From: an uncultured Myxococcales bacterium
Lineage (GTDB): Bacteria > Myxococcota > B64-G9
Assembly: GCA_964561025.1 (NCBI GenBank)
Contig: CAZLNM010000012.1
Location: 416-64,415, forward strand
Reading direction: 5' to 3'
Length of the DNA stretch: 64,000 bases
Below are positions 30,654 to 55,345 of this stretch, one piece after another (position 1 is the first letter of the stretch; each line of letters begins with the position of its first letter). The notes beneath the pieces were generated by a model. It had not been told where the DNA came from. It saw only the letters and a list, made by a program, of their open reading frames with translations, and searched no databases. Both the position numbers and the translations under genes were made by a program.

Positions 30654-31192
30654 AGATCCCGCTCGCGGTGTGGTTCGCCATCGCCGGGGTGTGCGGTTGC
30701 TTTGCGAGGACGGTGGTGCACCCCGAGGCGGTGCGGCTCAACGACGAGGGCGCCCGGGCCATGGCCGAGGGGCGCGCGCGCGAGGCGCGGGTGCTGTTCG
30801 AGCTGAGCCTGGAGTACGGGCCGTGCTACGCCGAGGCCCTGCACAACCTGGGGATCTGGCACCTGCTGCGCGGGGAGTTGCCGGCCGCCGCCCTGCGCGA
30901 GGAGGAGGCGCTGGTCTGCCGGCCGGACCTGGTCCAGGCTCGGTGCGGACTGGGAGTGGTGCGTTGGCGGCAGGGGGATCGCGACGAGGCGCGCGCGCTG
31001 TTCGAGGAGGCCCTGCGGCTCGATCCCGGATCGCTCGACGCGCGGCGCAACCTGGTGCTCCTGGATCTAGAACAGGGAAGGCTGGAGGAGGCCCGCATCC
31101 AACTCGATCGGCTGCGGGTCCTCTCCCCGGAAGACCCGATTCTGAAAGACCTGCCACCGGACGCAGAGACCGCTTTTTCGGATGGCCAGTGA
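30650..31192 (+). CDS. small TPR lipoprotein (pilotin-like architecture)
   Basis: Its ATG overlaps the FHIPEP stop in a 4-nt ATGA. It has a lipoprotein signal (WFAIAGVCGC) and about 4 TPR units. It is the 3' end of a 1190-aa shadow ORF in the track. Confidence 0.7.
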   Translation: MKIPLAVWFAIAGVCGCFARTVVHPEAVRLNDEGARAMAEGRAREARVLFELSLEYGPCYAEALHNLGIWHLLRGELPAAALREEEALVCRPDLVQARCGLGVVRWRQGDRDEARALFEEALRLDPGSLDARRNLVLLDLEQGRLEEARIQLDRLRVLSPEDPILKDLPPDAETAFSDGQ

Positions 31193-31205
31193 AAGAGGGA
31201 GGATC

Positions 31206-32012
31206 ATGACATTTCGCTTCTTCATCGTGGGACAGGAAGCCACCGCGGCGGGGTTCTTCGTGGACGAGGCCCGCGCGGGCCCGGAGGTCGTCCTCGGCCG
31301 GGACGAGCAAGCGCACATCGTGCTCCCGGATCCCTCCGTCTCCCGCCGGCACTGCCGGGTGACGGAACACGCGGACGGGCCGCGGGTGGAGGACCTGGGT
31401 AGCCGGCTCGGCACACGTCTGAACGGCGCCGCGCTGCTGCCGGGGGAGCCTGTGTTGCTACGGCAGGGGGACGAACTCACCCTGGGGGTGTACCGGGTGG
31501 TCTTCGTGGGGGACTCTGACGCTGCCTGCGATGAGACTCGCGCCGTGGCGGCGGCGCTGCAGGAACTCCTCGAGCAGCCGGACGCCGTGGTCGAGAAGGC
31601 GTACCTGGAGATTGAGAACGGGCCCGAGGCAGGGAAGCGTATCGATCTGCCAGACGAGGGCGTGCTGCGGCTCGGCCGCGGCCGGGAGTGCGAGGTTCGC
31701 CTGGATGACGCGCGAACCTCGAGAGCCCACGCGCTGATTCGGCTGCGCCGCAAGGAGGCCTGGCTGGAGGACAATGGATCTCAAAACGGCACCTTCGTGG
31801 GCGAGCGGCGAGTGCGACGGGAGGTCCGGCTCGCGGATCGGGATCAGTTGCGCCTGGGCCGGATGGTGCTGCGCGTACGGCTGCCAAAGCAACCGCTCGA
31901 TCTCGGCGCCGTCCTCTCGGCCCGGACGGGGCCGGCGCGGCGCCTGTGGCTTTCCTCGCTGGCATTTCTGCTGATGGGAGTCGGCGGTCTTCTGCTGGCG
32001 GCGTGGACCTAG
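31206..32012 (+). CDS. tail-anchored protein with two FHA domains
   Basis: Two FHA signatures (VVLGRDEQAHIVLPDPSVSRRHCRV...LGSRLGTRLNG and LRLGRGRECEVRLDDARTSRAHALI...NGSQNGTFVG) and a C-terminal TM segment (LWLSSLAFLLMGVGGLLLAAW). Start at ATG 31206 after a gagggagga RBS, 13 nt after the TPR gene. Confidence 0.78.
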   Translation: MTFRFFIVGQEATAAGFFVDEARAGPEVVLGRDEQAHIVLPDPSVSRRHCRVTEHADGPRVEDLGSRLGTRLNGAALLPGEPVLLRQGDELTLGVYRVVFVGDSDAACDETRAVAAALQELLEQPDAVVEKAYLEIENGPEAGKRIDLPDEGVLRLGRGRECEVRLDDARTSRAHALIRLRRKEAWLEDNGSQNGTFVGERRVRREVRLADRDQLRLGRMVLRVRLPKQPLDLGAVLSARTGPARRLWLSSLAFLLMGVGGLLLAAWT

Positions 32013-32109
32013 CGTTGCTGTGCCGCAACTTACGCGCGCCCGCCCGCCAGCGCTGGCTCTTTCGCTCCCACGATCGGTCGCGACTTACGGAGAGAGGAGG
32101 GTGGGCGTC

Positions 32110-33204
32110 CTAGCTGAGATCCACCCGGAGCACCTGGTTGCCGATCTGGACGCGATCGTCGTGAGCGAGCGGCGTGCTGCCGACGATGCGCAGGTAGGTG
32201 CCGTTCGACGAGCCCAGGTCGCGCAGGAAGCAATCCCCCTGGCGGTTGCTGAGCAGACAGTGGCGCGAGGAGATGTACCCGTCATCGGGGAAGCGCACCT
32301 CGCCCTCCTCGCGCCCGATCATGACCTCGGCCTGGGTGAGCAGGTGGATCTCGCCGATCTTGCCGCCTTCCAAGATCTGCACCAGGCGGGCCCACACCTG
32401 GGGCACCGGGCTGCCCCAGAACTGGCTGTCGTCGCCGGCCTTCGGCGGGGCCTCCAGGTCCTGGAAGCCCCCCGGCACCTCCAGCCGCAGCAGTTGCCGC
32501 CCGATGCGAAAGCAGGTCCCCGGCGCGATGGGCTCCTCGGCGGTCATCTTGCGGAAGATGCCGTTGAGGCTGTCGAGGTCGGTGATGGAGAGCTGGCCGT
32601 CCTTGAAGGTGAGTTCGGCGTGCCGCGGGGAGATGAACGGATCCTTGGGGAACATGATGACCCCCTGGCTCCGCCCGAGCGTGGTGCGCTCGGCGGCCAG
32701 GGTGAAGACCGTGCCCTCGGAGCCGTCGGGCTTGATCAGCACCAGCCGGGCGCGGGGTTTGCGGGCGGCGTCGGGGGAGGCCACGTGCATGAACATGGTG
32801 GCCCCCTTCGGCGCCGCCTCGCCGCCGGAGAGCCGCTGGCCGCAGCCGCTACAGAAGACGTCGCCGGGCTTGGTGGGGGCGTGGCAGTGCGGGCAGGCCG
32901 CGGGGGCGCCAGACGGCGATTCTACGGCCGGGGCGGCGGCGACCGGCGCCGGCTCCGCGGGGGGAGGCGGCGGCGCCGCGGCGGGCGGCGGGGCGGCCGG
33001 ACGGATGGCGCTCGCGGGTTTCGCCTGGGCGCCGGTGGCCGGGCGGGAAGGCCGTGGGGCTGGAGCGGGCTCTACCGGAGCTGGCGGCGCCGCGGCCGGA
33101 GCGGGCTTCTCCGAGGTCCCGCCGGGGCGCAGCACGTTGCCGCAGTCGAGGCAGAAGCGGAACGAATCGTCGTTTTCCCTGCCGCAGTTCGGGCACTTGA
33201 CCAT
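32110..33204 (-). CDS. double zinc-ribbon, double FHA-domain protein
   Basis: MVKCPNCGRENDDSFRFCLDCG and CPHCHAPTKPGDVFCSGCG zinc ribbons, a Pro/Ala linker, then two FHA domains (LGRSQGVIMFPKDPFISPRHAEL...SLNGIF; IGREEGEVRFPDDGYISSRHCLL...SSNGTY). I trimmed the start to ATG 33204. Confidence 0.78.
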   Translation of the reverse strand: MVKCPNCGRENDDSFRFCLDCGNVLRPGGTSEKPAPAAAPPAPVEPAPAPRPSRPATGAQAKPASAIRPAAPPPAAAPPPPPAEPAPVAAAPAVESPSGAPAACPHCHAPTKPGDVFCSGCGQRLSGGEAAPKGATMFMHVASPDAARKPRARLVLIKPDGSEGTVFTLAAERTTLGRSQGVIMFPKDPFISPRHAELTFKDGQLSITDLDSLNGIFRKMTAEEPIAPGTCFRIGRQLLRLEVPGGFQDLEAPPKAGDDSQFWGSPVPQVWARLVQILEGGKIGEIHLLTQAEVMIGREEGEVRFPDDGYISSRHCLLSNRQGDCFLRDLGSSNGTYLRIVGSTPLAHDDRVQIGNQVLRVDLS

Positions 33205-33367
33205 GAAGGCTCTCCCTGTCGTGCCGGACGAGCGCCGGCCGGATCCTATGACCGCGGATTGAACCATCCGGCGCGCGACACTGTCAAGCGCCGCGCCAAC
33301 TCCCTTGCCACACCTGGCGAGACGGCGTAGCATTTCCCGTCATCGAACCCACCGCGCGGGAGGACGC

Positions 33368-33911: not shown

Positions 33912-33930
33912 TACTCATCATGTTGAGTAA
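33889..33930. promoter_or_regulatory. two tandem palindromic operator-like sites, TACTCA-N6-TGAGTA
   Basis: tTACTCAatgcgcTGAGTAa (33889-33908) and aTACTCAtcatgtTGAGTAa (33911-33930). Their centres are 22 bp apart. The first fills the promoter spacer and the second is centred on the start codon. Confidence 0.5.
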
Positions 33931-35125
33931 ATTGTCAAAGGCTTTCCGGCGCCCACAGGCAGAGACACTGGCGCGGCGACTGCGAGAGCCGCGCCGGTTC
34001 ATCCAGGTGGTGGCCGGGGCGCGGCAGGTCGGAAAGACCACGCTGGTCGAGCAGGTGGTGCAGGACTCCGGTGTGCCGGTGGTGTTCGCCAGTGCCGATG
34101 AGCCCACCCTCAAGGGGTCGGATTGGATCGCTCAGCAGTGGGAAGCCGCGAGAATGACTGCCGGCGACAGCGGCTCCATCCTGGTCATCGACGAGGTGCA
34201 GAAGGCCGCCGGCTGGTCAGAGACGGTGAAGCGACTGTGGGACGAGGACACGCGCAAGAGGTGGCCCATCAAAGTCCTCCTGCTGGGTTCAGCGCCCCTA
34301 TTGGTTCAGAGAGGGCTTTCCGAGAGCCTGGCCGGCCGATTCGAGATTTTGAACCTGCCGCACTGGTCGTTCGACGAGATGCGGCGGGCTTTCGGTTTTT
34401 CCCCGGAACAATACGTTTTCTACGGTGGCTATCCTGGAGCCGCTCCTCTGATCGGGGAGTTCGAGCGCTGGGTGCGATACATCCGCGATTCCCTCATCGA
34501 AACCACCATCTCGCGAGACGTGACGTTGCTTGCGCGGGTGGACAAACCGGCACTGCTGCGTCGGCTTTTCGAACTGGGCTGCATCTACTCGGGGCAGGTG
34601 CTCTCCTACAACAAGATGCTTGGCCAGTTGCAGGACGCCGGCAACACCACCACCCTGGCGAACTATCTCGAACTGCTTTCCGCGGCAGGCATGCTCTGCG
34701 GACTGTCCAAATACGCCGGTGGAAGGACCCGCTCGCGCGCCTCGAGCCCGAAGCTGCAAGTGTTCAACACTGCCTTGATCAGCGCCCAGGCCGGGGTCAC
34801 GTTATCCGACGCCCGTGCCGACCGCGAGCACTGGGGGCGCCTGGTCGAATCGGCCGTCGGCGCTCACCTGATCAACACGTGCCGGTCGGGAAGCGGGGAA
34901 GTCTATTACTGGCGAGAGCGCGACCTGGAAGTGGATTTCCTGGTCAAGATGGGGCGAACGCTCGCGGCCATCGAAGTCAAGAGCGGGCGCAGACGCGCCG
35001 CAGGAACGGGCATGGCGGCCTGCTCGAAGATCTTTCGGCCAGACCATGTCCTGCTCGTGGGCGGCGACGGCATACCCGTTGAGAAATTCCTGGCGACGCC
35101 CATCGAGCGGTTGCTGAAGAACTGA
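33920..35125 (+). CDS. AAA+ ATPase with C-terminal DUF4143-type domain (AAA_14 family)
   Basis: Walker A GARQVGKTT about 35 aa from the N-terminus, Walker B ILVIDEVQ, and a C-terminal region typical of DUF4143 (…EVYYWRERDLEVDFLV…AIEVKSG). Its GC content is visibly lower than that of its neighbours. Confidence 0.75.
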   Translation: MLSKLSKAFRRPQAETLARRLREPRRFIQVVAGARQVGKTTLVEQVVQDSGVPVVFASADEPTLKGSDWIAQQWEAARMTAGDSGSILVIDEVQKAAGWSETVKRLWDEDTRKRWPIKVLLLGSAPLLVQRGLSESLAGRFEILNLPHWSFDEMRRAFGFSPEQYVFYGGYPGAAPLIGEFERWVRYIRDSLIETTISRDVTLLARVDKPALLRRLFELGCIYSGQVLSYNKMLGQLQDAGNTTTLANYLELLSAAGMLCGLSKYAGGRTRSRASSPKLQVFNTALISAQAGVTLSDARADREHWGRLVESAVGAHLINTCRSGSGEVYYWRERDLEVDFLVKMGRTLAAIEVKSGRRRAAGTGMAACSKIFRPDHVLLVGGDGIPVEKFLATPIERLLKN

Positions 35126-40679: not shown

Positions 40680-42092
40680 TCAGGGCGGGTCCCAACAACA
40701 GCGGAAGCCCGTGGTCGGGGAGGCGGTCAGGGGCGCGTCGCAGTAGTCGATGTAGGTCATGGGGTACTGGCACTGGTGGCGTTGCTCGATGTCCGAGCGC
40801 CGTTGGTCCGGATCGTCGAAGTCGCACGCCTCCCAGCCGGAGGTTGTCTGGGTCCAGCACTCGTAGGCGCCGCCCTGCACCGAGCGCTTGGCGGCGTCTT
40901 TCTCGCAGGGCGAATCCGTCCATTCCCACAAGTTGCCGCTCTGGTCGTAGCTGCCGACCCGCGAGCGGCAGGTGTCCAGGGATCCGCTGGACACCGTATC
41001 ACCGATCAGCCGGGTGAAGGTGTTGCAGGCTGTGGGGCTGTAGGTTCTGTCGGCGTATGTATACTGGAAGTTGCTGCCGTCCCAGTCGGCGCCGCAGGCC
41101 ATGGACCAGTCCCGCTTGGTGCAAAGGCGCTTGCCCGAAGCTTGGCAGGCCCGGCGCGCCTGGAACCAGGTCAGGTTGCGCGAGGGGCGAAGACCCGGCA
41201 GGGAGCAGGCGTACAGCGTCACGGTGACGCCGGTGTCGTTGGGTGGCCAGCCGGAGGGGTAGTCGTAGCTGGACTTCTCCTCGCCGAAACGCTTTCCGGT
41301 GCAGTCGGCGTTCTCGAAGACGGTGGCCTCGTACTTGTCGATGAGCACGACGAACCCCTGCAAGGTGTAGGGCACGCGCACCATGCAGCCGGGCTCGTCG
41401 GCGACGCCGTTGCAGTTGTTGTCCTTGCCATCGTGCGCGGCGGCTCCCAGCTCGCACTCATCGAGCGGCGGGATGCCCTCGTCGGTCTCAGCATCGCAGT
41501 CGTTGTCGATGCCATCGCAGATCTCAGGCGAGGAGCGGTCGTCAGAGCCGCCCGGCATGGTGCTGCAGCGCTGGCCGGTGGCGTCCACGCACTCCCACAC
41601 CCCGTCCGGGCAGGCGCCTTGCCCCGGGCAGGGTTGCCCCGAGCTGAACCCCTCGTCGGTCTGGCCGTCGCAGTTGTTGTCCACCCCGTCGCAGATCTCG
41701 CGCGCCGGGACAAGCGCATCGCACTGCCAGGCGGTGGACACGCACGTCTCGGTGCCCGTGCAGGTGCCGTAGCTGTTCTTGCGCTCGCAGGAACGCGGGG
41801 AGAGTTCCTCGTCGGTCTGGGCGTCGCAGTCGTTGTCCACCCCGTCGCAGTCCTCGACGCCGCCGTGGGTGATGGAGCAGCCGAGTTCGCACCGGCCGCG
41901 GCCGGTGCAGCGGTATCCCGAGGGACAGTCCGATGCCAGGACACAGTCGAACACGCAGTCCCCCGACAGAATGGCGCAGTACCGGCCCGACGGGCAGTCG
42001 GTATCGACGCGGCAGCCGGACTCCCCCCCGGATGAGCACGCAGCCAACTCGAGGGAGAGCGCCAGCGCCATGAGGCAAGTCGTTGTTTTCAT
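40680..42092 (-). CDS. secreted lipoprotein: Cys-rich MopE-like repeats plus FGE-sulfatase (SUMF1/FGS) domain
   Basis: Lipoprotein signal (ALSLELAAC), four CDG[VI]DN[DN]C[DN]xxxDE repeats, then an FGE-sulfatase-type domain (IDKYEATV..., NLTWFQARRACQASGKRLCTKRDW, GNLWEWT, QGGAYE). It is the 3' third of a 1425-aa shadow ORF; start is ATG 42092 after GGAG. Confidence 0.75.
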   Translation of the reverse strand: MKTTTCLMALALSLELAACSSGGESGCRVDTDCPSGRYCAILSGDCVFDCVLASDCPSGYRCTGRGRCELGCSITHGGVEDCDGVDNDCDAQTDEELSPRSCERKNSYGTCTGTETCVSTAWQCDALVPAREICDGVDNNCDGQTDEGFSSGQPCPGQGACPDGVWECVDATGQRCSTMPGGSDDRSSPEICDGIDNDCDAETDEGIPPLDECELGAAAHDGKDNNCNGVADEPGCMVRVPYTLQGFVVLIDKYEATVFENADCTGKRFGEEKSSYDYPSGWPPNDTGVTVTLYACSLPGLRPSRNLTWFQARRACQASGKRLCTKRDWSMACGADWDGSNFQYTYADRTYSPTACNTFTRLIGDTVSSGSLDTCRSRVGSYDQSGNLWEWTDSPCEKDAAKRSVQGGAYECWTQTTSGWEACDFDDPDQRRSDIEQRHQCQYPMTYIDYCDAPLTASPTTGFRCCWDPP

Positions 42093-42161
42093 GAGGCTCC
42101 TCGTAACCAGCATCATTATAGTCGATACCGCTCGAAAGGCCAATGCAGCCTGGCGATTCGT

Positions 42162-42189
42162 TTGACTCCACGGGACTTCAAGGTACAAT
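42162..42189 (+). promoter_or_regulatory. sigma-70-like promoter candidate for the MCP/CHAT unit
   Basis: TTGACT (42162-42167), 16-nt spacer, TACAAT (42184-42189), 26 nt upstream of GTG 42216, with a gaggga RBS between. Confidence 0.45.
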
Positions 42190-42215
42190 GAGCCCGTTCT
42201 TTCGAGGGACAAGCG

Positions 42216-44798
42216 GTGAACGACACCGATCGCTCGCGCCAGGCTTCGCCCATCCGGACCGCCGGCCTCCTGGTCGGCCTGTGGGGCCTGGTGGTGCTGG
42301 TCAGCAACTTGTTCATCATCTGGTTCTTTCCCCCGCCCAAGGGTCACTGGCTCCTGTTCGAGATCGTGCTGTGGGCCGGCGCCGTGCTGATGGGCTGGTG
42401 CACCGTTTTTTTGGTGTTGCGCTTCTACCAGCCGCTCATGGACTTCTACGAGGCCCACCTGAACGGCAGGAAGCTGGAGGACGCCATCATCGAGAGGGCC
42501 CGGCGGGCGGCCGGAAGCCTGTACCTCAAGCTGGCCGCCACCGGCGGCGTCTGTCCCGTGCTGCTCATGCTCGGCGTGGGCCTGTTCATGATCTGGGAGG
42601 CCGACCTCCCCGCCCAGCACCTGGGCTACTTCATCCTGCTGGGGTTGTTCGGGGCGCTGACGATGGGCATGGTGTTCTTCTTCGCCCCCGGCGCGCGCTC
42701 CGGTCAGGCCCTGGAGGCGGCGTCCAGTTACGGCGCGGGTGGGCCGCGGCGGCGCGGTTTGTCGTTGGGAAGCAAGACCATCATGCTGGGGTTCGGCCTG
42801 GCCTGCATGCCGGCGCTGCTGGTGGGCGCCTTCAGCAACTACCACGCCAACCGGCTCATGGCCGAGGAGCTGGGCCGGCGCATGGAGAGCGGCCTGGTGC
42901 TGGTGGAGCGCGGAGCGCGCGCCCTGGAGCAAGATGGCGCCGGACGGAGCGAGATCGACAAGTACCTCACCACCGAATCCCGCAAGCTCGGGGAGGGCGT
43001 CTTCTTGCACCTGGTGAGCCAGAACGGGGCGGCCTTCCGCAGCCAGGACGCCGAGCCCCTCACCGGCGAGCTGTACCGGACGATCGTCGCCCTGCGCGGC
43101 CCCGGGGTCTCGGGCACCGTGACGGATCCCGCGGGCTCGGGCAGCTACGCCTTCGCCTTCAGCGCGGACTCGTCGAGGGTGCTCATCGCGCCGGTGCGCG
43201 CCGCGGCCTTGCGCAGCACGCAGCGCACCCTGCTGGGGCTGACGTTGGGCATCCTGCTGTGCTCGCTGGTCGTGGCGGCCGGCCTGGGATGGCTGTTCGC
43301 GGCGTACCTGGGCGGGACCATCCGGCGCATGGTGATGTTCACCGGCGAGGTGGCCCGCGGCGAGCTGCGCCGGGATCTCACGGTGGTGGGAGACGACGAG
43401 ATCGGCGAGCTGGGGGACGCGCTGCACGCCATGGCCGACAACTTGCGGCGGATGGTGCGCGACGTCTCCACCCTGGCCAACCAGATCGCGGGCACCTGCG
43501 ACCGGTTGCTGCTCAAGGCCTCGGCCATCGCCACCGGGGCCGACGTGCAGGCCCAGTCGGTGCACGAGACCAGCAACGCCGTGCACAGCCTCAACCAGAC
43601 CATCGGCACCGGCGCCGAGGCGCTCAAGAAGCTGGCCCACTCCGCCCGCGAGACCGCCGAGGTCGCCGACAAGGTGAGCCAGGGTTTCTCGCTCATGTTG
43701 ACGGAATGTGATTCCTTGCAGGGGACGGTCGATCGCACCGGTCAGATCGTGGAGCGCATGACCCGGGCCGTGCAGGAGGTGGCCCAGGTCATCCACGAGC
43801 TCAGCGGCGGTGCCGTGCGCTCCGCCCAGTCGATGTCGGAGGTCGATCGCTCCGTGGCCGAGGTGACCACCCGGGCGGCGGAGACCGCCCAGATGACCCG
43901 CCGGGCCATCGACGTGGCCCAGGAAGGCGCGGTGGCCGTCCGGCGCACCATCGAGGGAATGGATCGGATCGTGGAATCCACCCGGCAGGCCTCCAGCGTC
44001 ATCCTGGGGCTCGGCAACCGCATCGAGGCCATCGGCTCCATCCTGGGCGTGATCGAGGAGATCGCCGATCAGACCAACCTGCTGGCCCTCAACGCGGCCA
44101 TCATCGCGGCCCAGGCCGGCGAGCACGGCCGGGGATTCGCGGTGGTGGCCGACGAGATCCGCTCCCTGGCCGAGCGCACCGGGTCCTCCACCCGGGAGAT
44201 CGGCCAGATGATCACCGACATCCAGGAGGCCTCCGGAGAGGCCATCCGCGTCATGCGTGGCGGAGGCGCCACGGTCAACGAGGGCGTGAACCTGGCCAAG
44301 CAGGCCGGGGAATCGCTCAACCAGATCCTGGTCAACGTCCAGCGCGCGGCCGAGAACGTGGAGATGATCGCCAAGTTCACGGAGACCCAGGCGCGCTCCA
44401 GCGCGGTGGTCACCCGCGAGATCAACCAGGTGGCCGAGCTGGCCGGGCGGATCTCGGAGACCGCCTCCGGGCAGACCCGGAGCGGCGAGGAGCTGCTGGC
44501 CGCCTTCCGCGAAACGTTGCAGAGCACGCAGGCCATCGGCAAGTTGGTGAACCAGCAGGCCCAGGAGAACCGCCTGGCCCTGGCCACGGTGGGGGACATG
44601 CGAGACTCGGCGGAGCGGACCCGCACGGCCCTGTCGGAGCAGATGGCGGTTTCGGACAATATCCTGCGCGTCATCGAGCAGGTGCGGGAGATCGCCAAGA
44701 ACCACGCCAAGGCCGCGCAGGAGATGGGCGAGGCCACGCAGTCCTTGGCCGAGAAAAGTGCGCGTCTCAAGCAGGAAATCGACGTCTTCCATGTGTAG
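42216..44798 (+). CDS. methyl-accepting chemotaxis protein (multi-TM, HAMP, MA domain)
   Basis: About six N-terminal TM segments, a HAMP domain (…[23 protein letters not shown]) and the canonical hairpin tip [42 protein letters not shown]. Confidence 0.88.
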
Positions 44799-47700
44799 GG
44801 CCGCGGGCGGAGGTCGTGCCTTCGCGGCCTTGCTGCTGGTCTTCTCCGGCGGATGCGCCGCGGGTCGGCTCGCCATCGAGGGGCTGCCCGAGGACGCTGT
44901 TTCTTCTGAGCCGCGCCAGATCACCCGCGGGTTGGAGGACGAACTCTCCCCGGTCATCGACCCCGCCCGGCGCCGGCTCTTCTACGTGTCCAACCAGGGC
45001 CAGGACCGGGAGATCTGGGTGCGTTCGCTCTCCGGGGGAACGCCACGGCGCGTCACCAGCGATCCCGCCGACGATTTCGATCCGGCCCTCTCCTTCGACG
45101 GAAAGAAGCTGGCCTTCGTCTCCCAGCGCCTCGACGCCAAGGGGGACATCTTCGTGCTGGATCTTTCCAGCGGCGGGCTCGAGCGTGTCACCGACCGCAG
45201 CACCGCGGAGCGCCAGCCGGTGTTTTTCCCCGACGGCCGGTTGGCGTTTACGCGGATCCGGCCCGACAGCGACTCCGAAAGCATCTACCTCATGGACGTC
45301 GCCCGTCGCAGCGTCTCGCGGCTGACCCGCCGCGACGGGTTCGACCCCGCGGTCTCGCCGGACGGGCGCTACCTGGCCTTCACCTCGCCGAACAACGAGG
45401 GGCCTCCCTGTATCTGGCTGCATGATCTTACCGATGGCAGCGAGCGGCCGCTCACCGCTTGCGATCGGCCCGAGGCGTTTCCCGCCTTCGGCGGCGAGGT
45501 CGCGCCGTGGCGGGTGGTGTTCTCGCGCTTCCAGGACGACACCAATGGCGACGGTCGCATCGACACCGCCGATCGCCCCTCCTTGTGGCGGGTGGAGATC
45601 GCCTCGGACGGCCGCGCCTCGGAGCCATTCCCGCTGACGACCGGTCTGTCGTCCGACATCCAGCCCCGCGTCCTGGGCAACAGTGTCTACTACGCCAGCC
45701 GCACCGAAGGCGGCCTGGACATCTGGCGAACGTCCATCACCGGGCGGGGCGCTCCCATCGCGAGCCGCAAGGACATGCTGTCGCGGGCCAACGGCGCGCC
45801 CGATGGGCAGCAATCCCTGTACTGGCTGCGCCGGGCCGAGCGCGAGCTTGGCGCGTTCGGCGAGGTGGAGCTCTCACGCGTGCTCCAGGGAGAACGACTG
45901 CTCGAGGCGGGCCGGTTGCAGGAGGCGGTCGAGGTGTTCTCGGCCCTGTCCGAGAAGGCGCGCCTGGCCTCCATCCGGAACCGGGCCCGCTGGGGCCTGC
46001 TGGCGGCGCGCGTGCAGCGCGAGCTGCCCGCGGGGCTCTCCGCGGCGCAGCTTCTGGAACGGCGCGCGCGCATCGAGGAGTTCCTCGGCGAGGTCGCCTC
46101 GTTGCCGGTCTCAGACACGCGGCGCGCCTTGTTACGCGCTCAGATCCTGGATCGCGCGGGCCGGCCCGACGAGGCGCTCTTGCAGCTCGCGCTGCCCCTC
46201 GAGGCACAAAAGAGCCAGAGCCGGCTGACGGTGAAGGCCCTGCTGCAGCGCGCGGAGCTGTGGAACCGCACCGGCAATCCGGAGGGCGCCAGGGGCGACG
46301 CGCTGGCTGTGCTGAAGGCCTCGCGGGCCACCCCGGCCGAAAGGCGCCGGGCCGCCGAATTCCTCTTGAAACTCGCGCTCTCCCTCCCCGAGGCGGCCGA
46401 CGCGCGTCCGGTGCTGGAGCGCCTCCAGGAGCTCTTGCAAGCGGGCGAACTCCTGCCCGATCTCCGCAGCCTGGCCGGGCTCGCCCTCGGCGATTGGTAC
46501 CTGGGGCAGCGACAGCAGGATCGGGCCCGGGCAGCTTATATTTCGGTCTTCGAACGCGAGGACACGCCCCCGGATCTGGCCGGTCGGGCGCTGCTCGCGC
46601 TCTCCCGGCTGGACCGCAGCGCCGGCGATACCGGAGCGGCCCTGGATCGAGCGGTGGACCTGCTGCGGCGATTTCCGGAGCATCCGGCCGCGGCGGTGCC
46701 GGCGCGGCGCGAGCTGGAGGAGCTGGGGCGGCGCACCCTGGACGAGCTCACCTCGCGCGGGGAGATCGGCGGCGCGCTGCGCGTGGCGCAGCGCATGCTG
46801 GAGCAATACGACGACGATCCGGTGTTGTGGCGGCGCTGGCTGGACCTGATGGCTCGCTCGGGCCAGATCGAGGCCGCGCTCCGGCGCTGCCGCGAACTGC
46901 TGGCGGCTCGGCCGGGGGAACTTTCGCACTACCTGCTCGGCCTGGCGCTGACCTACCACGAGCCGCCCCGGCACTTCTCGCAGGCGGAGCGGCACTTGCG
47001 CGAAGCGCTGGCGCTCGACGAGCGGCTGCCGTATGCCTACCAGACCCTGGGCTGGATCGAGGAGCAGCGGGGGAGACAAGACGGGGATGGCGAGGCGTTG
47101 AGCCGCGCGGCGGCAGCCTACGATACGGCGCTGCTGCTGCTCGACGCGCGCACCCAGCCGGAGACCGAGGCGGACCTGCTGCAGAACCTGGGCAACGTGC
47201 ATTTTTTGCTGGGCAACCACCGCCAGGCCCATCAGTTCCTCAAGCGGCGTGAGGAGGCGGGTTTTCCGTTCCGCCACCCGGTGACCCGGCAGGTGTTTCT
47301 GGAACAGTTCGGGCGGGCCGCCTTCCTGGCGGGAGAGCATGAAGACGCTCGGCGGAGCTTCGCCGCCGCCATCGAGCACGCGGAGCGCGAGCCGGCCCGC
47401 CGGGCGCGCCTCGGCTGGCTGTGGAGCGCGCTGGGGGCATCGCATCAGCTGGCGAACGACCACCCGGCGGCGATCGAGGCCTTCTCCCGCTCCTGCCGGA
47501 TCTACCGGGAGGAGAAGCAGGTGGCGCGGGAGGAGATCTGCCAGCGCAACCTGGCCAACAACCTGATGTTGGCGGACCGGCTCGAGGAGGCCGCCAAGGC
47601 CTTCGCCGAGGCCGAGAGGCTCCTCACCCGGCTCGGCGCGGCGGACGATTCCGGCGGCGGGGTGTCTGTGGCGGTCACCGGGCGCGGGTCGCGGGCGGCC

Positions 47701-50700
47701 TTCGGCTTCAACCGGGCGCAGGAGCGCTACCTGCTGGCGATGCTCCAGAGCCGGCTCTTCTGGCGGATGGGAGAGCCATGGCTTTCGCTGGCGGCCGGCG
47801 CTCGCGCCCTCGAGCTGCTCTCTGTCGAAATGCAACGGGAAGGGGCGGAGGCGCTGGCCCCGGATATGGCCAGGGTGGCCAGCCAGCAGGCCGACCGGCT
47901 GGCCCGCGCGGGCGAGCTAAGGCAGACCGCCCAGCAGGCGCGCGAGTCGCTGTCGTATGCCGACACCGCCGGAGAGGCCGAGGGGCTGGCGACCGGAGGC
48001 ATCAACCTGGTGAGCCTGGCGGCGGCGGACGGCAGCGGCGTGAGCTGGCAGGAGGCGGATCAACGCCTCTCCGCCATCCAGGGCCGGGTGGAGCGCGCCA
48101 GCGATCTTGCGGACCCCGGCCTGCCGCGCCGCTTCGCCAGCGCTCGGGGCGTGGCAGGATTCCGGGCGGCGCTCTCGCAGCCCCTCCCCGAGGCCCACTC
48201 GGATCCCGAGCGTCAACTCGTGCAGTCTATCGCGTTTCTGGATCACGCGCTCAAACGTCTAGAGCAGGCGGGTGAAGACCTGACGCGCGCCTGTCCGGCA
48301 GAGGATCCGCGAAGCCGCTCTGAGCTACTGTCTGCGACGTTGGCGTGCGACAACCTGGCCGTCTTGCGTGAATTCGCAGGCGACAGCGAGGCGGCGGCCG
48401 GGTTGCGACGCGAGAACCAGCGCCGCAGCGATGACTTTGAACTGTTGTCCGTCGGCTGGCGGCTCTCGGGCACCTCCTTGCAGGCGAGAGCGAAGACGCT
48501 GCTGTCCTTGCCGAGCGAGCTCTCTGGGACCCGGGACGATCGAGCCGCCCGGCTGGCCCGGGACGAGCTGTTGCGGTCGCTGGGAGAAGAGGCGCTGGCG
48601 CGGGAGGACGCCGCCGCGGCCCTGGAATGGTTCGACAACGCCCGCTTGCGAGACCGCCAGGACCGGCTCCAGGCCGAGGAGATGGAGCTGCTCGTGCCCG
48701 AGGAGGCGGAGTCGCTGCGGCGCATTCGGCAGATCGTCGCCCGGGTGCAGGCGGCCCTGGCGCGGATCGAGCCCGCGACGACGGAGGAGGAGCGGGCCCG
48801 GCTGAAGCGCGAGGTCGCTTCCGCTCTTGCGGAGTTTTCTGAGCTGCGCGCCCGGACGGCCGCCTCCAATGCGCTGTGGCTTCTCTGGGGCCAGGCCGCC
48901 TCGGCCGCCGAGATCCGCGCGGCGCTCTCGCCGGGCGAGGGCATGCTGGTCTACGTCCCGACTCCGCGGCGGCTGGTGAGCTTCTGGATCACGGGCGAAC
49001 AGGTGAAGGAGGTGACGCTGCCGGTGCCGGCCGCGACGCTGCGGCAGGCGGTGGAGGAGCTGCGCGGCGGTGATCCCGAGCGCTCCCGCCTCGCCAGGCG
49101 CCGATTGACGGAGTGGCTGGTGGAGCCCTGGCAGAAGGAGGTCGCGGGCCTTCGCACCGTCCTGCTGGTCGCGGGGACGAGCGAGATCCCGCTGGAGGCG
49201 CTCGAGCTGGGCGGTGCTCCGCTACGGTCACGGCTGTCGGTGAGCCGTCTTGCGACCGCCTCGGACCTGGTCCGGCTGCGCCAAACCCCGCGCTTCAACT
49301 ACCGCATCGGGCTGTGGCGCGGCCCGGCGCCCGAAGCGTCGTTCGCGCGGGCGTTGAAGGAGCGCCTGGGCGAACTGAACGTCCGCCCGACCGAGGGGAA
49401 CGCCGCGGCGCGCGGCTTGGCCGGCGAGGAGGCGGGCGTGGTAGTCTTGGCGGAGCTGCTTCGAGGCAACCCGTTGCGCCTGCTCCGTCCCTGGGTGCGG
49501 GGGGGCCGGGAGAACCTCGTGCTGGACGAGGAGTCCGCGCGCGCCAGCCTGTGGATCGCTCCGCTCGAGCCGCGGGATGTCGCAGCGCGAGAGGCGCTGA
49601 TGGCGGCGATGATCGCCACCGGGGTCCCCAGCGCCGTGGTGCCCGGCGATCGGCTGGCGGAGCCGGCACACCAGGCCGCCCTGCTGGAGCTCTTGTCCCG
49701 GCTGGAACGAGCCGGGCCGGCGGCGGCCGTGTCCGCGATGAACGGGCTCGGGCCCGCGCCGCCGGCCGCGGTATCTTCCTGGTACATCCTGGGAGATCCG
49801 GGCCTCGACGCCACGGAGCGGCGCGCGCGCGCCGAGGCCGCGCTGCCGGCGGACGTCCAACGCGCCATGTCGGCCTACGGCGCCAAGCGCTGGAAGGAAG
49901 CGCAGGAGGCATTCTTGCGGACGCGCTTCTGGGTGCGCTTCTTGGGGCGCGAGGAGCTGCTGCCCCGCATCGAACAGGGGTTGGTCCAGTGCGCCTTCCA
50001 CCTCGAGGACTTCCCGCGGGCGCGGTTCCACCAGACCCAGATCGTGGACATCGCCCGGCGGGCGGGTGACGCCGTGGCCGTGGCGCGCGCGCAGGCGCTG
50101 CTGGGCGTGCTGGAGGCTCGTCTGCAAAACCACCGCGCGGCCGAGGAGCTGCTGCGTGGCGCGGCCGAGGCGTTGGAGAGACATGGCAACCCGGCCGAGT
50201 CCGCCGGGGCCTGGACCAACCTGGCGCTGGCGCTGGACGCCGCCTCGCGCTATGCGGAGGCGCTTTCGGCCCTGGGCAAGGCCAGCGCCATCTATGAATC
50301 GCTGGGGGATCAAAAGAGCCGCCTTCGGCTGGAGCAGAACGCGGGGACGATCTACCTGCGGCGCCTCAACGACGTCGCCGTGGCGCGCGAGCGCTTCTTT
50401 GCTGCCTTGGGGATCGCGCGCGCCCTCGCGGATCGCGCCCAGGAGGCCGCCATCGGGTTGGACCTGGCGCGTTGCGACCTGGCCGCCGGCGACTATTCCG
50501 GGGCGCTGCAGCAGGCCGAGCGAGCGCTGGAGATTTCGCGGGAGCTCATGGACGCGGCCGGGCAGGCCGCGGGATTCATCGAGCAAGCGCACGCGCACTG
50601 GTACCAGGGCGACTACCCGGAGGCCTGGGCCGCCCAGGGCCGCGCCCTGGAGCTGGCGAAGCAGGCGGGCGATCGCCGCCTGGCCGTGATGGCCCGGAGC

Positions 50701-52653
50701 CTGGGTGGGTTGATCGCCCTCAACCTGGGGGATCTGAAAGAGGCGGAGCAGCGCCTGGGCCAGGCGCTGGAGGAGGCGCGCCAGGCCCGATTGGCCGACG
50801 AGGAGGCCACCCAGCTCAACAACCTCGGGGCGGTGGCCCGCGAGGCCGGAGACACCGCGCTGGCCCGCAAGCGCTTCGAGGAGGCCCTGCGCCTGGACGA
50901 GGCGCGCAAGAACGAGCTGGGCCGGGCGTACGATCTTCGCAACCTGGGCCTGCTGGAGCTTGCCGCCGGGAACCGGCCCACCGCCAAACGCAACCTCGAC
51001 GAGGCGCTACGGCTCAGCCGCGCAACGAAAGATCGCTTCAATCAGGCGAAGGTGCTGCTGGGCCTGGCGGACGCGGAACGCGCCCTGGAGGGTGGGGGCG
51101 AGGCGGCGCAAGAGCACGCCCTGGAGGCGGAGCGGATCGCCACCGAGCTCGGGCTGAAGGAGGTCGCCTGGCGGGCGCAGCGGGTGCTCGGGGATCTGCG
51201 GGCGGGCCGGGGAGAGCTGGAGCCGGCCCTGGCCCATTACCGGGAGGCGCTGCGCCTGGTCGAGAGCATGCGGGTGATCGCGGGTGGCGATCTGCAGGCG
51301 GGGCTGTCCGACGACAAGTACGAGCTCTACGAGTCCGCGGTGCGAGTGCTGTGGCGGCTCGGGCGGGAGGACGACGCCCTGGTCATGGTCGAGCGCTCGC
51401 GTTCGCGCCGCCTGCTGGATCTGCTGGCCGGGCGCGTCATCCACGCGGGTGGGCGGGCCAGCGAGTGTCTCGCCACCATCCAGGAGGCGGATCGCGTCTT
51501 GGCCGGGAGGGCCCGGCTCAAAGACGTGACCGATGAAGAGGCCCGGCGGATCCAGGACGCGACGGAGCGCAAGAACGCGGCGCTGGCAGAGCTTCGCCGC
51601 ATCCAGCCGGAGCTGGCCGAGCGGGTCGAGATGCAAGAGATCCGCTTGCAGGACCTGGACGGCCGCATCCCGCCGGACACCGTGCTGCTCGATTACTTCG
51701 TCTCCCGCGAGCAGGTCATGGTGTGGGCGCTGCGAGCCGACCGGCGCGTCCTGCGCGTCGTGCCCTTGGCTCGCGCGGAGCTCGAGCGGCGCGTCAAGTC
51801 GCTGCGCGAGGATGTCCAACATTTCGAACCCGTGGACGGGGAGCTCGCCCTGCTCTACCGGGATCTGCTGGAGCCGGTCGAGGATCAACTGGCCGGGGCA
51901 GAGCGCCTGGGGATCGTGCCCCACGGCATCCTGGCCCGCGTCCCGTTCGCCGCGCTGCGCGACGGCGGCGGCCGGGCCCTGGTGGAGCGCTTCGACATCT
52001 TCTGGTTGCACTCGGCGCTGATGTTGGAGCAGCTGCGGCGGCGCGGTGAGCAACGGCTGGGTCCCGGCGGCGAGGCCCTGGTGGTGGCCAACCCGGCGGT
52101 GAAGGACCGGCCGGCGCTACCGCTCTCGGAGCTGGAGGCGGTGGAGGTGTCGCGCGAGCTCCCCGGCGCCGAACGCTGGCTCCGCGAGGACGCCCGCAAG
52201 GACCGGGTCATCGAGCGCCTGCCGGGCGCCGAATTCGTCCACCTGGCTTGCCATGGCACCCTCGACGCGCGCAACCCCTTGCGCAGCCGGCTGCTGCTCT
52301 CGCCGGGGCCCAACGGGGATGGAGACCTCAGCGCGCAGGAGGTGTTCGACCTGTTTCTGTCGGCTCGCCTGGTGACGTTGTCGGCCTGCGACTCCGCGCT
52401 CACGGGCGGCGTGGCGGGAGACGAGTTGGCAGGCCTGCCCCGCGCCTTCCTGTCCGCGGGCGCACAGAACGTCATCGCCGGCCTGTGGCGCGTCGCGGAT
52501 CCGGCGACGGCCATGCTCATGAAGCGGCTCTATCGCGAGCTGTCCCGCCATCCCCCTGCGCGGGCGCTGCGTCTGGCGCAGCAGGTGGTGCGGCGGTATT
52601 TCCCGCACCCGGGCCAGTGGGCCGGGTTCGTGTTGTACGGCCTGGGCGAGTAG
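44791..52653 (+). CDS. giant (about 2,620 aa) lipoprotein: TolB/PD40-like beta-propeller, about 1,900 aa of TPR-like repeats, C-terminal CHAT (caspase-fold) protease domain
   Basis: Signal and lipobox-like [15 protein letters not shown]40-type repeats follow ([64 protein letters not shown]), then long TPR-like arrays. The CHAT end carries His (HLACHG, codon 52252-52254) and Cys (LSACDS, codon 52387-52389). The ATG at 44791 overlaps the MCP stop by 8 nt; the tracked GTG start is at 44758. Confidence 0.8.
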
Positions 52654-52666
52654 GTTCCGGCGCCGG

Positions 52667-55261
52667 CTAGTTCCGCGGAAGGAAACGGCGGATGCGTTGG
52701 CACAGCTCCTCGCGCCGGGCGGCGTCCTTCCCCAGGGGGGTCAGGCCGAGGCGGTTGTCCTTGCGCCCGGAAGAGGAGAGCTCCAGAAGGCCCATCTCGG
52801 TGTAGCGCTGGATGGCGTTGCGGAACAGATCTCTCGACAGCGCCTCGGGCCAGCGCAGCTCTCCCTGGGCGAATTCGTGCTCGCCGAGCTTCAGCAGTCG
52901 GTTCTGGAACTCGCGCTCGGGCAACGGCTGGGGTTCGAGCAGCGAAAGCCCGCGGGCGCACAACAGGTAGGACTCCAGGAAGTGCTCCAGGGCGCCGCAG
53001 AACACCTGGCCCAGCTCTCCGGTCGCCTCGCCCTTGACCACGAAGTCCCCCTCCGAGCGCAGCAGTCCCAGGCGGCCCAGGTCCGTCAGGGCCTCCTGTA
53101 GCTCGGAGTCGAACTCGCGGCGGCTGCGGAACAGAAATTCCTGTTTGAGGAGCTGAGACAGATCCTGGATACGCTCGGCGAGCGGGCCGCGCGGCACCGC
53201 CTCCACCGTGAAGGACTGGAGCGCCAGCATCACGATCGAGGCCGGCACGAAGTGGTGGATCACGTTGTTGCGGTAGTAATCCAACGCCAGGCGGCGGTGC
53301 TCCACCGGCGAGAGCACCACGTCCAGCCCCGTGTCCTGCAGCGTGATCAGGCCGTCCCGGGCGAAGCGGGAGGCGGCCTCGGCCAGCGCCCGCGGGAAAT
53401 CGGACAGGGTCTGGGAGAACCGCGCCGGGCGCCGGCGGGAGATCCACTCGGCCGCCCAGCGGGCCCGCTCCAGCAGTTTCTTTTCGCTCATGCCGCGCCG
53501 CCGGTGGGTGAGCAGGCAGAACGCCAACAGGCCGGAGGGGGTGACCGTGGCCACCTGGTTGATGCGGAAGAGGATGTCGTGGGCCAGGGCCGAGATCAGC
53601 TGCCGGCGCGACTCCTCGTCGGGCGCGGTGGAGTAGCCGCGCTGCGAAAGGTACTCGCGCAGCGACACGATCTCGCCCACCTGCAGGTAGATCTTGCCGT
53701 ACCGGCTGCGCAGCGCCTCCCCGGCCTTCACCAGGGCCACCACGTTCTCCTTCTCCTTCTCGCCTCCGGAGAGCTCCCGCACGTAGCTCCGAGCCTCCAC
53801 GATCTTTTCGTAGTCGATGGACAGCGGTACGAAGTGGATGTCGGCGTCGGATTCGTCCAGGCAGGCCTGCACCAGCCAGGAGAGGATGCCGAACTTGGGC
53901 GGCAATAGCTTTCCGGTCCGGGAGCGGGTGCCCTCGATGAAGAACTCGATGGGGAACCCCTCCCGCATGACGTGGCGCAGGTAGGTGCGGAACACCGCCG
54001 GGTACAGCTCATCGCCCTTGAACGAGCGGCGCATGAAGAAGGCGCCCGAGTGCCGGAAGATGGGCCCCATGGGCCAGAAGGACAGGTTGATGCCCGCCGC
54101 GATGTGGGGCAGCGGAAGCGCCTCCTGCAGGCACATCTGGCTCAAGATGAGGTAGTCCACGTGCGAGCGGTGCGCCGGGCAGAACACCACCGGCGACTTG
54201 CGCAGGGCGGCCCGGATGCGGTCGAAGCCTTCCTGATCCACCACCACGCCCTCGTACATGCGCTTCCAGAAGACGTTGAGCACGGCGTTGAGGAACAGCG
54301 GCCAGCGGATGCGCGGCTCGGCGGCGATCTCGTCCAAAAGGTCGTTGGCGCGCTGGCGCAAGGCCTCGGTGCGGGTGTTGTCGCCGGCCGCCTGGGAGGC
54401 GATGTGCTCCAGGAGGTGGGGATCCGAGAGGATGTCGCGGATGAACTCCTGGTGGGGCCGGAGCCGGGGCCCGGTGACCCCGTAGGCTTCCAGCGAGAAG
54501 CGCTGCGTCAGCGCCTCGAACAGCCGCGGTGCCTGTTGCGCCGCGTCCGCCGGGCCCTGCTGTTCGAGGAACGTCTTGAGCTCCAGCGGTTCGCCGACCT
54601 TGAGGAAGGCGTTGCGGTAGCGCCGCCACAGCACCCACAGCGAGCGCAGCAGGCCGGGGGCCTCGGGTTGCCCGAAGACCGCGTCGGTGAGGCTCTTCGA
54701 TTCCCGCTCGGGATGGCGGTCCCACACGAACATGTGGGGCACCAGGTGGATCGGGCGCTCCATGCGCCGCTGCACCTCGATCAGGGTCTCCAGCAGGCGC
54801 GTGCCGTCGACACCGCCCACGCTGGTCAGGGTGGCGGGGCGATCCAGAAACAGCAGCGCGGAGCGGTTCGCCTGGAGCATCGCGGCGAGTTGGATCGCCT
54901 CGGGGTGGGCGGTGGCGTCCGGCGGCTCCTTCGAGTCGTCCCGGGCCAGGTTGCGCATGTGCCCGAGCAAGAGGCCGACCGGCTCGAACAGGATCGGGTC
55001 GACCTCATTGACGAAGGCCGCCAGCGGGAGCCGGTGTTTCAGGCACATGTAGTTGAGGTACAAGAAGTGGACCGGGTTGGCGGAACGCCCCACGTACACC
55101 ACCGGCCCGCGCTCGGCGATCTCCCGGATGCGCGCGGCGGCCTCGGGCGGAAAGCGGATGGGATCGAAGTAGCGGGCGAAGAAGGCCCGCAGCAACGGGC
55201 CGTAGCCGTCGTGCATGGCGAGCGGCGGAACGGGGAGCGATGGGTCGGTGTTCTCGGTCAT
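52667..55261 (-). CDS. plsB: glycerol-3-phosphate 1-O-acyltransferase
   Basis: About 860 aa with the acyltransferase H(X4)D block VFCPAHRSHVDYLILS, plus FFMRRSF and IEGTRSRTGKLLPPKFG, as in PlsB. I prefer the start at MTENTD (55261); the tracked start is 55330. Confidence 0.82.
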   Translation of the reverse strand: MTENTDPSLPVPPLAMHDGYGPLLRAFFARYFDPIRFPPEAAARIREIAERGPVVYVGRSANPVHFLYLNYMCLKHRLPLAAFVNEVDPILFEPVGLLLGHMRNLARDDSKEPPDATAHPEAIQLAAMLQANRSALLFLDRPATLTSVGGVDGTRLLETLIEVQRRMERPIHLVPHMFVWDRHPERESKSLTDAVFGQPEAPGLLRSLWVLWRRYRNAFLKVGEPLELKTFLEQQGPADAAQQAPRLFEALTQRFSLEAYGVTGPRLRPHQEFIRDILSDPHLLEHIASQAAGDNTRTEALRQRANDLLDEIAAEPRIRWPLFLNAVLNVFWKRMYEGVVVDQEGFDRIRAALRKSPVVFCPAHRSHVDYLILSQMCLQEALPLPHIAAGINLSFWPMGPIFRHSGAFFMRRSFKGDELYPAVFRTYLRHVMREGFPIEFFIEGTRSRTGKLLPPKFGILSWLVQACLDESDADIHFVPLSIDYEKIVEARSYVRELSGGEKEKENVVALVKAGEALRSRYGKIYLQVGEIVSLREYLSQRGYSTAPDEESRRQLISALAHDILFRINQVATVTPSGLLAFCLLTHRRRGMSEKKLLERARWAAEWISRRRPARFSQTLSDFPRALAEAASRFARDGLITLQDTGLDVVLSPVEHRRLALDYYRNNVIHHFVPASIVMLALQSFTVEAVPRGPLAERIQDLSQLLKQEFLFRSRREFDSELQEALTDLGRLGLLRSEGDFVVKGEATGELGQVFCGALEHFLESYLLCARGLSLLEPQPLPEREFQNRLLKLGEHEFAQGELRWPEALSRDLFRNAIQRYTEMGLLELSSSGRKDNRLGLTPLGKDAARREELCQRIRRFLPRN

Positions 55262-55345
55262 GACGAGCCGGCCGGGCGGGCCTCCGCTGTGTGGTGGGCC
55301 GAAGGTAGCAGACCGCCCGGGAGGGCGCAAGGTGCCCCGTGGGCA

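Follow-up and report, generated by a model that had tools for sequence, protein, structure and literature searches.

A chemoreceptor gene overlapping the gene of a giant, predicted periplasmic lipoprotein with an active-type and a degenerate CHAT domain in an uncultured Myxococcota lineage

CHAT domains, which are of the caspase fold, turn up repeatedly in conflict systems as effectors or sensors, and to our knowledge DdvA of Myxococcus xanthus is the single periplasmic CHAT protease that has been studied. DdvA is a transmembrane anti-sigma factor with a periplasmic, dimeric TPR-CHAT portion and a resting His-Cys dyad; it has been proposed to sense a periplasmic cue, to transduce it across the membrane and to start regulated proteolysis, and it controls a CBASS/CRISPR island in Myxococcus (PMC11506125). 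Here we compare with DdvA, and with other CHAT and envelope systems, a locus in a stretch of 64,000 nucleotides (nt) from an uncultured Myxococcales bacterium (contig CAZLNM010000012.1 of assembly GCA_964561025.1; the whole stretch is called the window below), where the gene of a methyl-accepting chemotaxis protein (MCP), that is a chemoreceptor, overlaps the start of the gene of a giant lipoprotein. The order of domains in the giant is signal, TolB-like propeller, TPR, pseudo-CHAT, TPR and CHAT. From comparative sequence analysis, we predict that the 2 genes are an operon kept in one uncultured Myxococcota lineage. Our preferred reading, to which we give sizeable but less than even weight, is that the giant is a periplasmic sensor/protease arm, and that the co-expressed MCP reads its state and relays it to a Che pathway whose genes lie elsewhere.

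In its way of working DdvA is, by analogy, the closest known system. Like the giant, it is a large TPR-CHAT protein with a His-Cys dyad, comes from the same phylum and is linked in the periplasm (for the giant, a predicted location) to inner-membrane signalling. Also, each would bring 2 CHAT units together, DdvA as a homodimer and the giant as a covalent pseudo-CHAT/CHAT pair. The differences are equally plain. DdvA is one chain of ~990 amino acids (aa) with an N-terminal zinc-binding anti-sigma domain and one transmembrane (TM) helix, has an extracytoplasmic function (ECF) sigma partner and controls a defence island, whereas the giant is a separate lipoprotein of 2,620 aa with a TolB-like propeller and a dead CHAT, and its membrane partner is a six-TM chemoreceptor. 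When we looked for the marks of the DdvA family, we found an extracytoplasmic TPR-CHAT by prediction (export signal, TPR and CHAT); the chain begins with a 22-aa signal followed by the propeller, where an anti-sigma domain and a single TM helix were looked for, and the adjacent genes encode a lipoprotein with a formylglycine-generating-enzyme-like (FGE)-sulfatase domain, the MCP and PlsB, and no ECF sigma factor. A search of PDB sequences with the CHAT region found no DdvA or separase chains, and returned Csx29-type chains alone. Membership of the DdvA family was rejected on these grounds: the giant is without the anti-sigma domain, the TM anchor in the same chain, the sigma partner and PDB sequence similarity to DdvA.

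Csx29, the TPR-CHAT protein of the type III-E effector Craspase, resembles the giant in its combination of TPR and CHAT and in its dyad motifs, LLLCHG and LGACES (7y9x), with which HLACHG and LSACDS of the giant align; also, the model of the pseudo-CHAT superposes on it. It is unlike the giant in being cytoplasmic, ~650-750 aa long and activated by Cas7-11 binding target RNA. We rejected the giant as a Csx29, because the NCBIfam model scored 43.8 bits against a cut-off of 300 and the window is free of CRISPR and cas genes. A Pfam survey of 46 coding-type open reading frames (ORFs), covering about the whole window, found no cas genes, ECF sigma factor or mobile elements there, and the original prediction for this locus, that it has neither a CRISPR nor an NTPase partner, held in that survey. 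Separase shares with the giant a long helical-repeat N-terminal region and the presence of an inactive pseudo-protease and an active protease in one chain. Yet the pseudo-domain of separase packs directly on the active domain, whereas the 2 CHAT domains of the giant are separated by ~500 aa of TPR, and separase is eukaryotic, cytoplasmic or nuclear, and regulated by securin. Full-text searches for literature linking CHAT with chemoreceptors, PD40 or lipoproteins found no relevant paper. The original prediction had known of no described system with this architecture; this stands for the pairing of CHAT with a chemoreceptor, which is without precedent, and does not stand for the more general arrangement, since a periplasmic TPR-CHAT tied to transmembrane signalling is already known in DdvA (PMC11506125).

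The features of the 2 genes are as follows, all on the plus strand and in window positions.

42162..42189: sigma-70-like promoter site TTGACT-N16-TACAAT, matching 10 of 12 consensus positions (predicted from sequence)
42216..44798: MCP gene, GTG at 42216, TAG at 44796-44798, 860 aa
42834..43229: predicted periplasmic domain of the MCP, aa ~207-338, between TM5 and TM6 (hydropathy, AlphaFold2 model)
44068..44150: tip of the MCP signalling hairpin, aa ~618-645, with 2 substitutions relative to solved receptors
44791..52653: giant lipoprotein gene, ATG at 44791, stop at 52651-52653, 2,620 codons; alternative GTG at 44758
44791..44856: lipoprotein-type signal peptide, lipobox Cys22 with Ala at +2 (PROSITE PS51257-type pattern)
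44893..45795: TolB-like PD40 beta-propeller, aa ~35-335 (PD40 E 9e-21)
45808..48660: first TPR-rich helical region, aa ~340-1290, with TPR_12, TPR_1 and LGN/Pins-type matches at aa ~560-950 (boundaries approximate)
48667..49800: degenerate pseudo-CHAT domain, aa ~1293-1670, without the catalytic His and Cys
49858..51360: second TPR region, aa ~1690-2190, with TPR_12, TPR_2 and consensus-TPR matches at aa ~1730-2110
51424..52650: active-type CHAT domain (Pfam PF12770), Pfam match at aa 2353-2617, full unit from ~2212
52252-52254: catalytic His2488 (HLACHG from 52240)
52387-52389: catalytic Cys2533 (LSACDS from 52378)

The C-terminal domain of the giant matched the Pfam CHAT family over model positions 5-288 of 289 with 207.5 bits (cut-off 24; E 3.7e-61), and His2488 and Cys2533 were invariant in an alignment of 24 diverse family members (24/24), so that the prediction of a CHAT domain with both catalytic contexts intact was confirmed. 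We infer from this that the domain is protease-competent, its activity being predicted. A second, degenerate CHAT lies within the stretch of ~1,900 aa that had been described as TPR-like repeats. When this segment of the family profile was compared by hhalign with the columns of the C-terminal CHAT, the 2 aligned over 371 columns with a probability of 99.9% (E 1.2e-36). An AlphaFold2 model of the segment (predicted template-modelling score, pTM, 0.70) was used in a Foldseek search of the PDB, in which all 22 matches at E <= 1e-3 were Craspase TPR-CHAT/Csx29, yeast or human separase (5u1t, 9hn5) or ciliary central-pair chains. At the positions equivalent to the dyad, none of the 24 members has His or Cys. 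Thus the repeats were rightly recognized (7 TPR_12 matches in the Pfam scan), but they are not an uninterrupted array: ~380 aa of the presumed TPR stretch are a dead CHAT. By these comparisons, the giant arose through an ancient tandem duplication of its TPR-CHAT unit, and one of the 2 copies has been inactivated.

With regard to the N-terminus, the giant has the sequence pattern of a lipoprotein, with lipobox Cys22 and charged residues Arg3 and Arg9, followed by the propeller, as had been predicted. In the giant family, N-termini carry either a lipobox or a type-I signal peptide, and the rest are evident miscalls of the start codon; in the nearer clade of relatives that is described below, a lipobox or signal-like hydrophobic stretch emerges when the start is placed near the MCP stop, and a hydrophobic stretch with a Cys upstream of the propeller is kept at the protein level in most loci. 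The export signal is thus both present and conserved across the family, and because lipobox or type-I signals occur family-wide, the family is predicted to be extracytoplasmic. The nearest likeness of the N-terminal propeller is the C-terminal beta-propeller of TolB, which the family profile matched with E 1e-34. It is also the best-conserved part of the alignment of nearer-clade giants, with many invariant residues. An acidic motif within it, at aa ~249-266 (45540-45600), is highly conserved, with several residues invariant across the nearer clade, and looks like a calcium-binding loop. We rejected the giant as a TolB: the NCBIfam model propeller_TolB scored 86.2 bits against an equivalog cut-off of 343, with solely propeller positions 177-364 matched, TolB_N was not matched, and the gene has no tol or pal neighbours.

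The MCP matched HAMP with 31.9 bits (threshold 25) and MCPsignal with 144.2 bits (threshold 34.6), both above the curated thresholds by which methyl-accepting chemotaxis proteins are recognized. Its hydropathy profile has six TM segments (17-35, 50-68, 108-130, 139-157, 188-206 and 339-365), in agreement with the original description of six TM segments and a HAMP domain. The N-terminus and loops 69-107 and 158-187 are rich in Lys and Arg, which is a positive-inside pattern; from this distribution we place the N-terminus in the cytoplasm and the loop 207-338 (132 aa) in the periplasm, and the predicted periplasmic exposure of the protein comprises this folded domain of ~130 aa and 2 short loops. 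In an AlphaFold2 model of moderate confidence, built from an alignment of 11 sequences (mean predicted local distance difference test, pLDDT, 72.7), the loop was modelled as a long helix, a second helix, and five strands with one helix, at a pLDDT of ~81-87. We read the modelled domain as PAS/Cache-like; a Pfam scan matched no sensor family in it. The signalling hairpin is unusually long, with arms of ~223 and 224 residues (~64 heptads) and its tip at Glu636, and its core aligns without gaps to a 44-heptad Thermotoga receptor.

Homologues of the MCP sensor region were sought by an exhaustive HMMER search of representative proteins from a library of 1.84 billion; a word-indexed search with aa 1-420 gave zero matches, and it also missed the query's own protein, while one with the whole MCP gave 3 proteins. 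The sensor module is rare, in that ~10 of the best 150 listed representative proteins match beyond HAMP. We examined the contigs of 5 such matches: 3 adjoin a giant, one lies on a 3-kb contig without a giant, and one has no giant within 20 kb.

ATGTGTAG is the 8-nt string common to the MCP stop and the ATG start of the giant. The window has ~70% G+C and many spurious long ORFs, but the third-position G+C (GC3) of both genes is of the coding type (0.94 for the MCP, 0.88 for the giant), and the ORF coordinates and the 8-nt overlap of the original prediction were borne out by the ORFs and the letters. GAGGGA, which is Shine-Dalgarno-like, precedes the GTG of the MCP. A consensus scan of 41800-53000 (11.2 kb) found 2 sigma-70-like sites, as against 0.2 expected from shuffles; both fall between the MCP gene and the divergent gene upstream of it, one facing each way, and that at 42162-42189 is the sole plus-strand site, as expected if a single promoter lies upstream of the pair. 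The TTGACT and TACAAT elements are unchanged in the closest relative (L005, giant 89% identical), while the spacer has 4 substitutions. Neither a promoter-like nor a terminator-like site was found at the junction of the 2 genes in the same scan. The flanks of the pair are formed by the following minus-strand features.

40680..42092: divergent lipoprotein gene (upstream boundary), with four MopE-like Cys-rich 'CDGxDNDCD' metal-binding repeats and the FGE-sulfatase domain
42143-42115: sigma-70-like site of the divergent lipoprotein gene (consensus scan)
52667..55330: convergent plsB, glycerol-3-phosphate acyltransferase (downstream boundary; GPAT_C, E 3e-82)

The end of plsB is 13 nt past the stop of the giant. 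Since the divergent lipoprotein gene and the convergent plsB flank them, the MCP and the giant form a unit of 2 genes with clear boundaries.

The giant belongs to a rare family, for which 5.8 billion clustered proteins yielded ~68 full-length relatives (2,380-2,881 aa), all of them from metagenomes or metagenome-assembled genomes (MAGs) labelled Myxococcota, 'Deltaproteobacteria' or Nitrospirales, so that the members of the family all come from uncultured organisms; their names go no further than 'CHAT domain-containing protein'. Loci were located by a contig scan with patterns drawn from 7 closer sequences; as both patterns lie in the propeller, the scan may miss distant relatives, and it also returned propeller-only matches (L025-L036) that are irrelevant to the family. 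Upstream DNA was available for 16 loci of the nearer clade (L001, L002/3, L005-L013, L016, L022, L024, L039 and L041), in which the giants are 32-89% identical to ours. A full-length orthologous MCP is present directly upstream on the same strand in 16/16, and the 2 genes overlap or nearly abut in each, which is the synteny that the original prediction had named as its check. Detailed analysis of 13 of these loci placed the start of the giant that includes the signal at -41 to ~+40 nt from the MCP stop. The persistence of overlapping or abutting starts across giants diverged to 32-40% would imply translational coupling.

The exact start codon of the giant is uncertain. Across 14 loci, a GTG at -41 (44758 here) occurs in 10 and the ATG at -8 in 4, and the ATG is missing from the closest relative of the locus in the window. 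An overlap with the MCP gene is obtained from either codon, of 8 nt from ATG 44791 or of 41 nt from GTG 44758; accordingly, the overlap that had been predicted stands, whereas ATG 44791 is one candidate start. TTG 44830 is a third candidate.

Two further observations concern the nearer-clade loci. A conserved trio of small genes stands just upstream of the MCP at L001:3641-5240, L002:3789-5302 and ~10 other loci: one for a cNMP-binding-like protein, one for a TM-anchored protein of ~191 aa that resembles protein-lysine methyltransferases (E 2e-10, below cut-off), and one for a protein of ~98-133 aa with weak similarity to sigma-70 region 4. By tblastn the window has no copy of the trio, and the upstream region of L005 matches that of the window; because the window is without a copy, the trio is not part of the conserved core. 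At L041:11499-19347 the giant is colinear with the others but split into five pieces in different frames, either as a pseudogene or through frameshift errors of a long-read assembly, and CheX and flagellin genes lie ~8 kb upstream of it.

On our preferred reading, the giant would be an exported, lipid-anchored sensing and protease arm in the periplasm, with its propeller and TPR surfaces capturing an envelope cue, either a protein or a peptide. The pseudo-CHAT and CHAT would act as a built-in heterodimer by which the active site is turned on. This heterodimer would have its counterpart in the periplasmic TPR-CHAT homodimer of DdvA, or in separase, where a pseudo-protease is paired with a protease. 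The state of the giant, whether ligand-bound, cleaved or conformationally switched, would be read by the MCP via its periplasmic/TM module, and the MCP would then control a CheA/CheW pathway encoded elsewhere in the genome. We infer in this scheme export, lipidation and topology in vivo, protease activity, contact between the proteins, the direction of signalling, the cue and the downstream pathway. The more specific proposal, that the activation state of a CHAT/caspase-fold protease gates the chemoreceptor and that the covalent pseudo-CHAT is the allosteric partner of the active CHAT, we regard as possible but doubtful. In NlpE-CpxA and RcsF-IgaA, where the co-sensors are outer-membrane lipoproteins, and in MBP-Tar, an exported partner reports to an inner-membrane signalling protein. 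These pairs share the proposed logic with the giant and the MCP, as a conceptual likeness; their exported partners are small and non-enzymatic, neither proteases nor TPR giants, and the lipoprotein examples do not signal to an MCP.

Several observations weigh against this reading. It is gene order that suggests functional coupling of the giant and the MCP, and gene order likewise from which a role in envelope surveillance or proteolytic signalling, as originally proposed, could be drawn. The convergent plsB recurs in L001, L002, L005, L007, L008, L011, L013 and L016, and the small upstream trio in most loci, so that these genes too are syntenic across the nearer clade; the conservation of the pairing may in part be inherited gene order within a taxonomically narrow group of MAGs. 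In L037 (9001-13380), an MCP homologue of 747 aa, with a TM module 29% identical and without the periplasmic domain, adjoins a convergent plsB, and the 20 kb examined around it contain no giant; hence the MCP-plsB neighbourhood can exist without a giant. The periplasmic domain is deleted in the MCP orthologues of L007 and L013, and in several homologues that, like these 2, still precede an intact giant, so that contact with, or cleavage of, this domain is not a universal mode of action. The tip of the signalling hairpin had been called perfect and is not: it reads IIAAQAGE where the two best solved chemoreceptor matches have IEAARAGE (NAAIEAARAGE), and the E-to-I and R-to-Q changes, at sites that we take to be trimer-contact positions in E. 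coli Tsr, are invariant in 14 MCP orthologues. As had been noted for the window, the Pfam survey found no CheA, CheW, CheB, CheR or stand-alone CheY there, and a single gene, at 3140-4030, combines a response regulator with a weak GGDEF match; orphan MCPs are common. Last, the distant giants (23-31% identity) have no MCP upstream; the pairing of giant and MCP is lineage-specific.

The distant clades also bear on a different explanation, which we consider possible though by no means probable: the 2 genes may be co-transcribed but functionally independent, with the giant an envelope-maintenance scaffold or protease and the MCP sensing something unrelated. Distant giants are preceded, often with an overlap of the start, by a lipoprotein of ~190 aa that in several loci matches Pfam DUF1318 (YdbL family); loci with the DUF1318 lipoprotein are L004:3749-8013, L042:2490-6868, L044:2632-7004, L014, L017, L018, L019, L021 and L023. 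Usually a TM protein of ~1,200 aa is encoded upstream of the lipoprotein. In E. coli, YdbH, YnbE and YdbL build a phospholipid bridge between the membranes and regulate it (PMC11126948, PMC13464000), and the distant-clade arrangement recalls the ydbH-ynbE-ydbL operon of that bridge. Under this explanation, the ancestral partners of the giant would be the DUF1318 lipoprotein and possibly the ~1,200-aa protein, as an AsmA-like protein, in outer-membrane lipid homeostasis, and the giant would have landed behind the MCP near plsB; L037 is consistent with such an insertion, and the retention of the giant where the MCP has lost its periplasmic domain also favours independence. Yet the AsmA-like assignment is weak. 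Precomputed annotations gave weak DUF748 or faint AsmA matches, which direct scans could not confirm (a Pfam scan gave nothing at E < 0.05, NCBIfam gave nothing usable, and a five-sequence profile had no PDB match), and we keep the assignment as tentative. Moreover, the nearer-clade loci have no DUF1318 gene in the upstream slot that it holds in distant clades, and have the MCP there instead; and the pairing is kept in all 16 loci, with overlapping or abutting starts, despite 32-40% identity among the giants. The DUF1318 context supports an envelope location of the giant family, as judged from sequence, while it also offers this rival, non-signalling role.

In the wider window we observed ordinary housekeeping chromosome, with pth, rpsF, rpsR, rplI, dnaB, smc, ftsY, ispH, aroA, and TonB-dependent receptor and xanthine-dehydrogenase-type genes. 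Other genes seen there are those of a Phage_holin_4_2-family membrane protein (4056-4421, minus strand), a DegP/HtrA-type protease with 2 PDZ domains (5167-6684, minus), a rhomboid protease (19973-21127, minus) and a 619-aa FHIPEP-family protein (FlhA/SctV-type export gate; 28794-30653), the last followed by FHA/YscD-cytoplasmic-domain genes at 31182-32012 (plus) and 32110-33333 (minus, with zinc ribbons). Besides these FHIPEP/YscD-type genes at 28794-33333, we saw no genes of a flagellum or an injectisome in the window. An AAA_14/DUF4143 ATPase gene at 33920-35125 has a GC3 of 0.79 and lies in a local dip of G+C to 0.65 (34-36 kb); it may have been horizontally acquired.

This setting counts against the notion, which we regard as unlikely, of a DdvA-type conflict or defence sensor, in which the TPR-CHAT would detect a phage, predator, competitor or prey protein and the MCP would relay to a Che-like pathway for gene expression, development or cell death, and not for chemotaxis. 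Myxococcota have several Che-like pathways with non-motility outputs, and CHAT is recurrent in conflict systems; the structural matches to Csx29 point the same way. A precedent is the control of a CBASS/CRISPR island by the periplasmic TPR-CHAT sensor DdvA (PMC11506125). But PADLOC, run on the MCP and the giant, gave just a generic TPR match and weak, low-scoring MCP matches; the window is of the housekeeping type, with no defence genes, mobile elements or ECF sigma gene beside the pair; and the stable syntenic position in many genomes is unlike that of a typical defence island.

We think it decidedly unlikely that the giant is a part or regulator of an envelope-spanning motility or secretion machine, with the MCP as a Frz-like controller. 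The TolB-like propeller, the lipoprotein signal and the very long TPR arrays would suit such a role, and the gliding machinery of M. xanthus includes both TolB-like/WD-type lipoproteins (AglU) and giant TPR proteins (AgmK, GltD), with the MCP FrzCD steering the movement. Against this, the pair has no Agl/Glt, pilus or flagellar genes at its flanks, either in the window or in nearer-clade loci, and a purely structural role leaves the conservation of the catalytic CHAT dyad unexplained. We give hardly any credence to an annotation artefact, with the giant starting past the lipobox and hence cytoplasmic, or decaying as a pseudogene: although the start is ambiguous among the ATG, GTG and TTG codons, several database relatives are called with starts that omit the signal peptide, and the giant of L041 lies in five frames, the ORF is intact over 7.9 kb with its coding-type GC3, the hydrophobic stretch with its Cys is conserved in most nearer-clade loci and a type-I signal occurs in other clades, the dyad and many propeller residues are invariant, and the assembly of L041 is probably of the long-read type, a kind prone to frameshifts.

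Chemoreceptors sense small molecules directly or via binding proteins, or respond to redox or energy cues. If our preferred reading is true, a protease co-sensor would be a new input class for chemoreceptors. On the more specific and doubtful proposal of a gating protease, the giant would be the first CHAT/caspase-fold protease to serve as an input device of a bacterial chemosensory (Che) pathway, and its pseudo-CHAT would be a bacterial analogue of the control by pseudo-proteases that is seen in separase or FLIP/caspase-8. The swap of partners in the giant family, MCP in one clade and DUF1318 lipoprotein in others, is a natural experiment, and perhaps points to monitoring of envelope or lipid status. 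As a second, independent design of a periplasmic CHAT protein in the phylum of DdvA, the giant provides a basis for comparison and suggests that caspase-like sensing outside the cytoplasm is a more general feature of myxobacteria.

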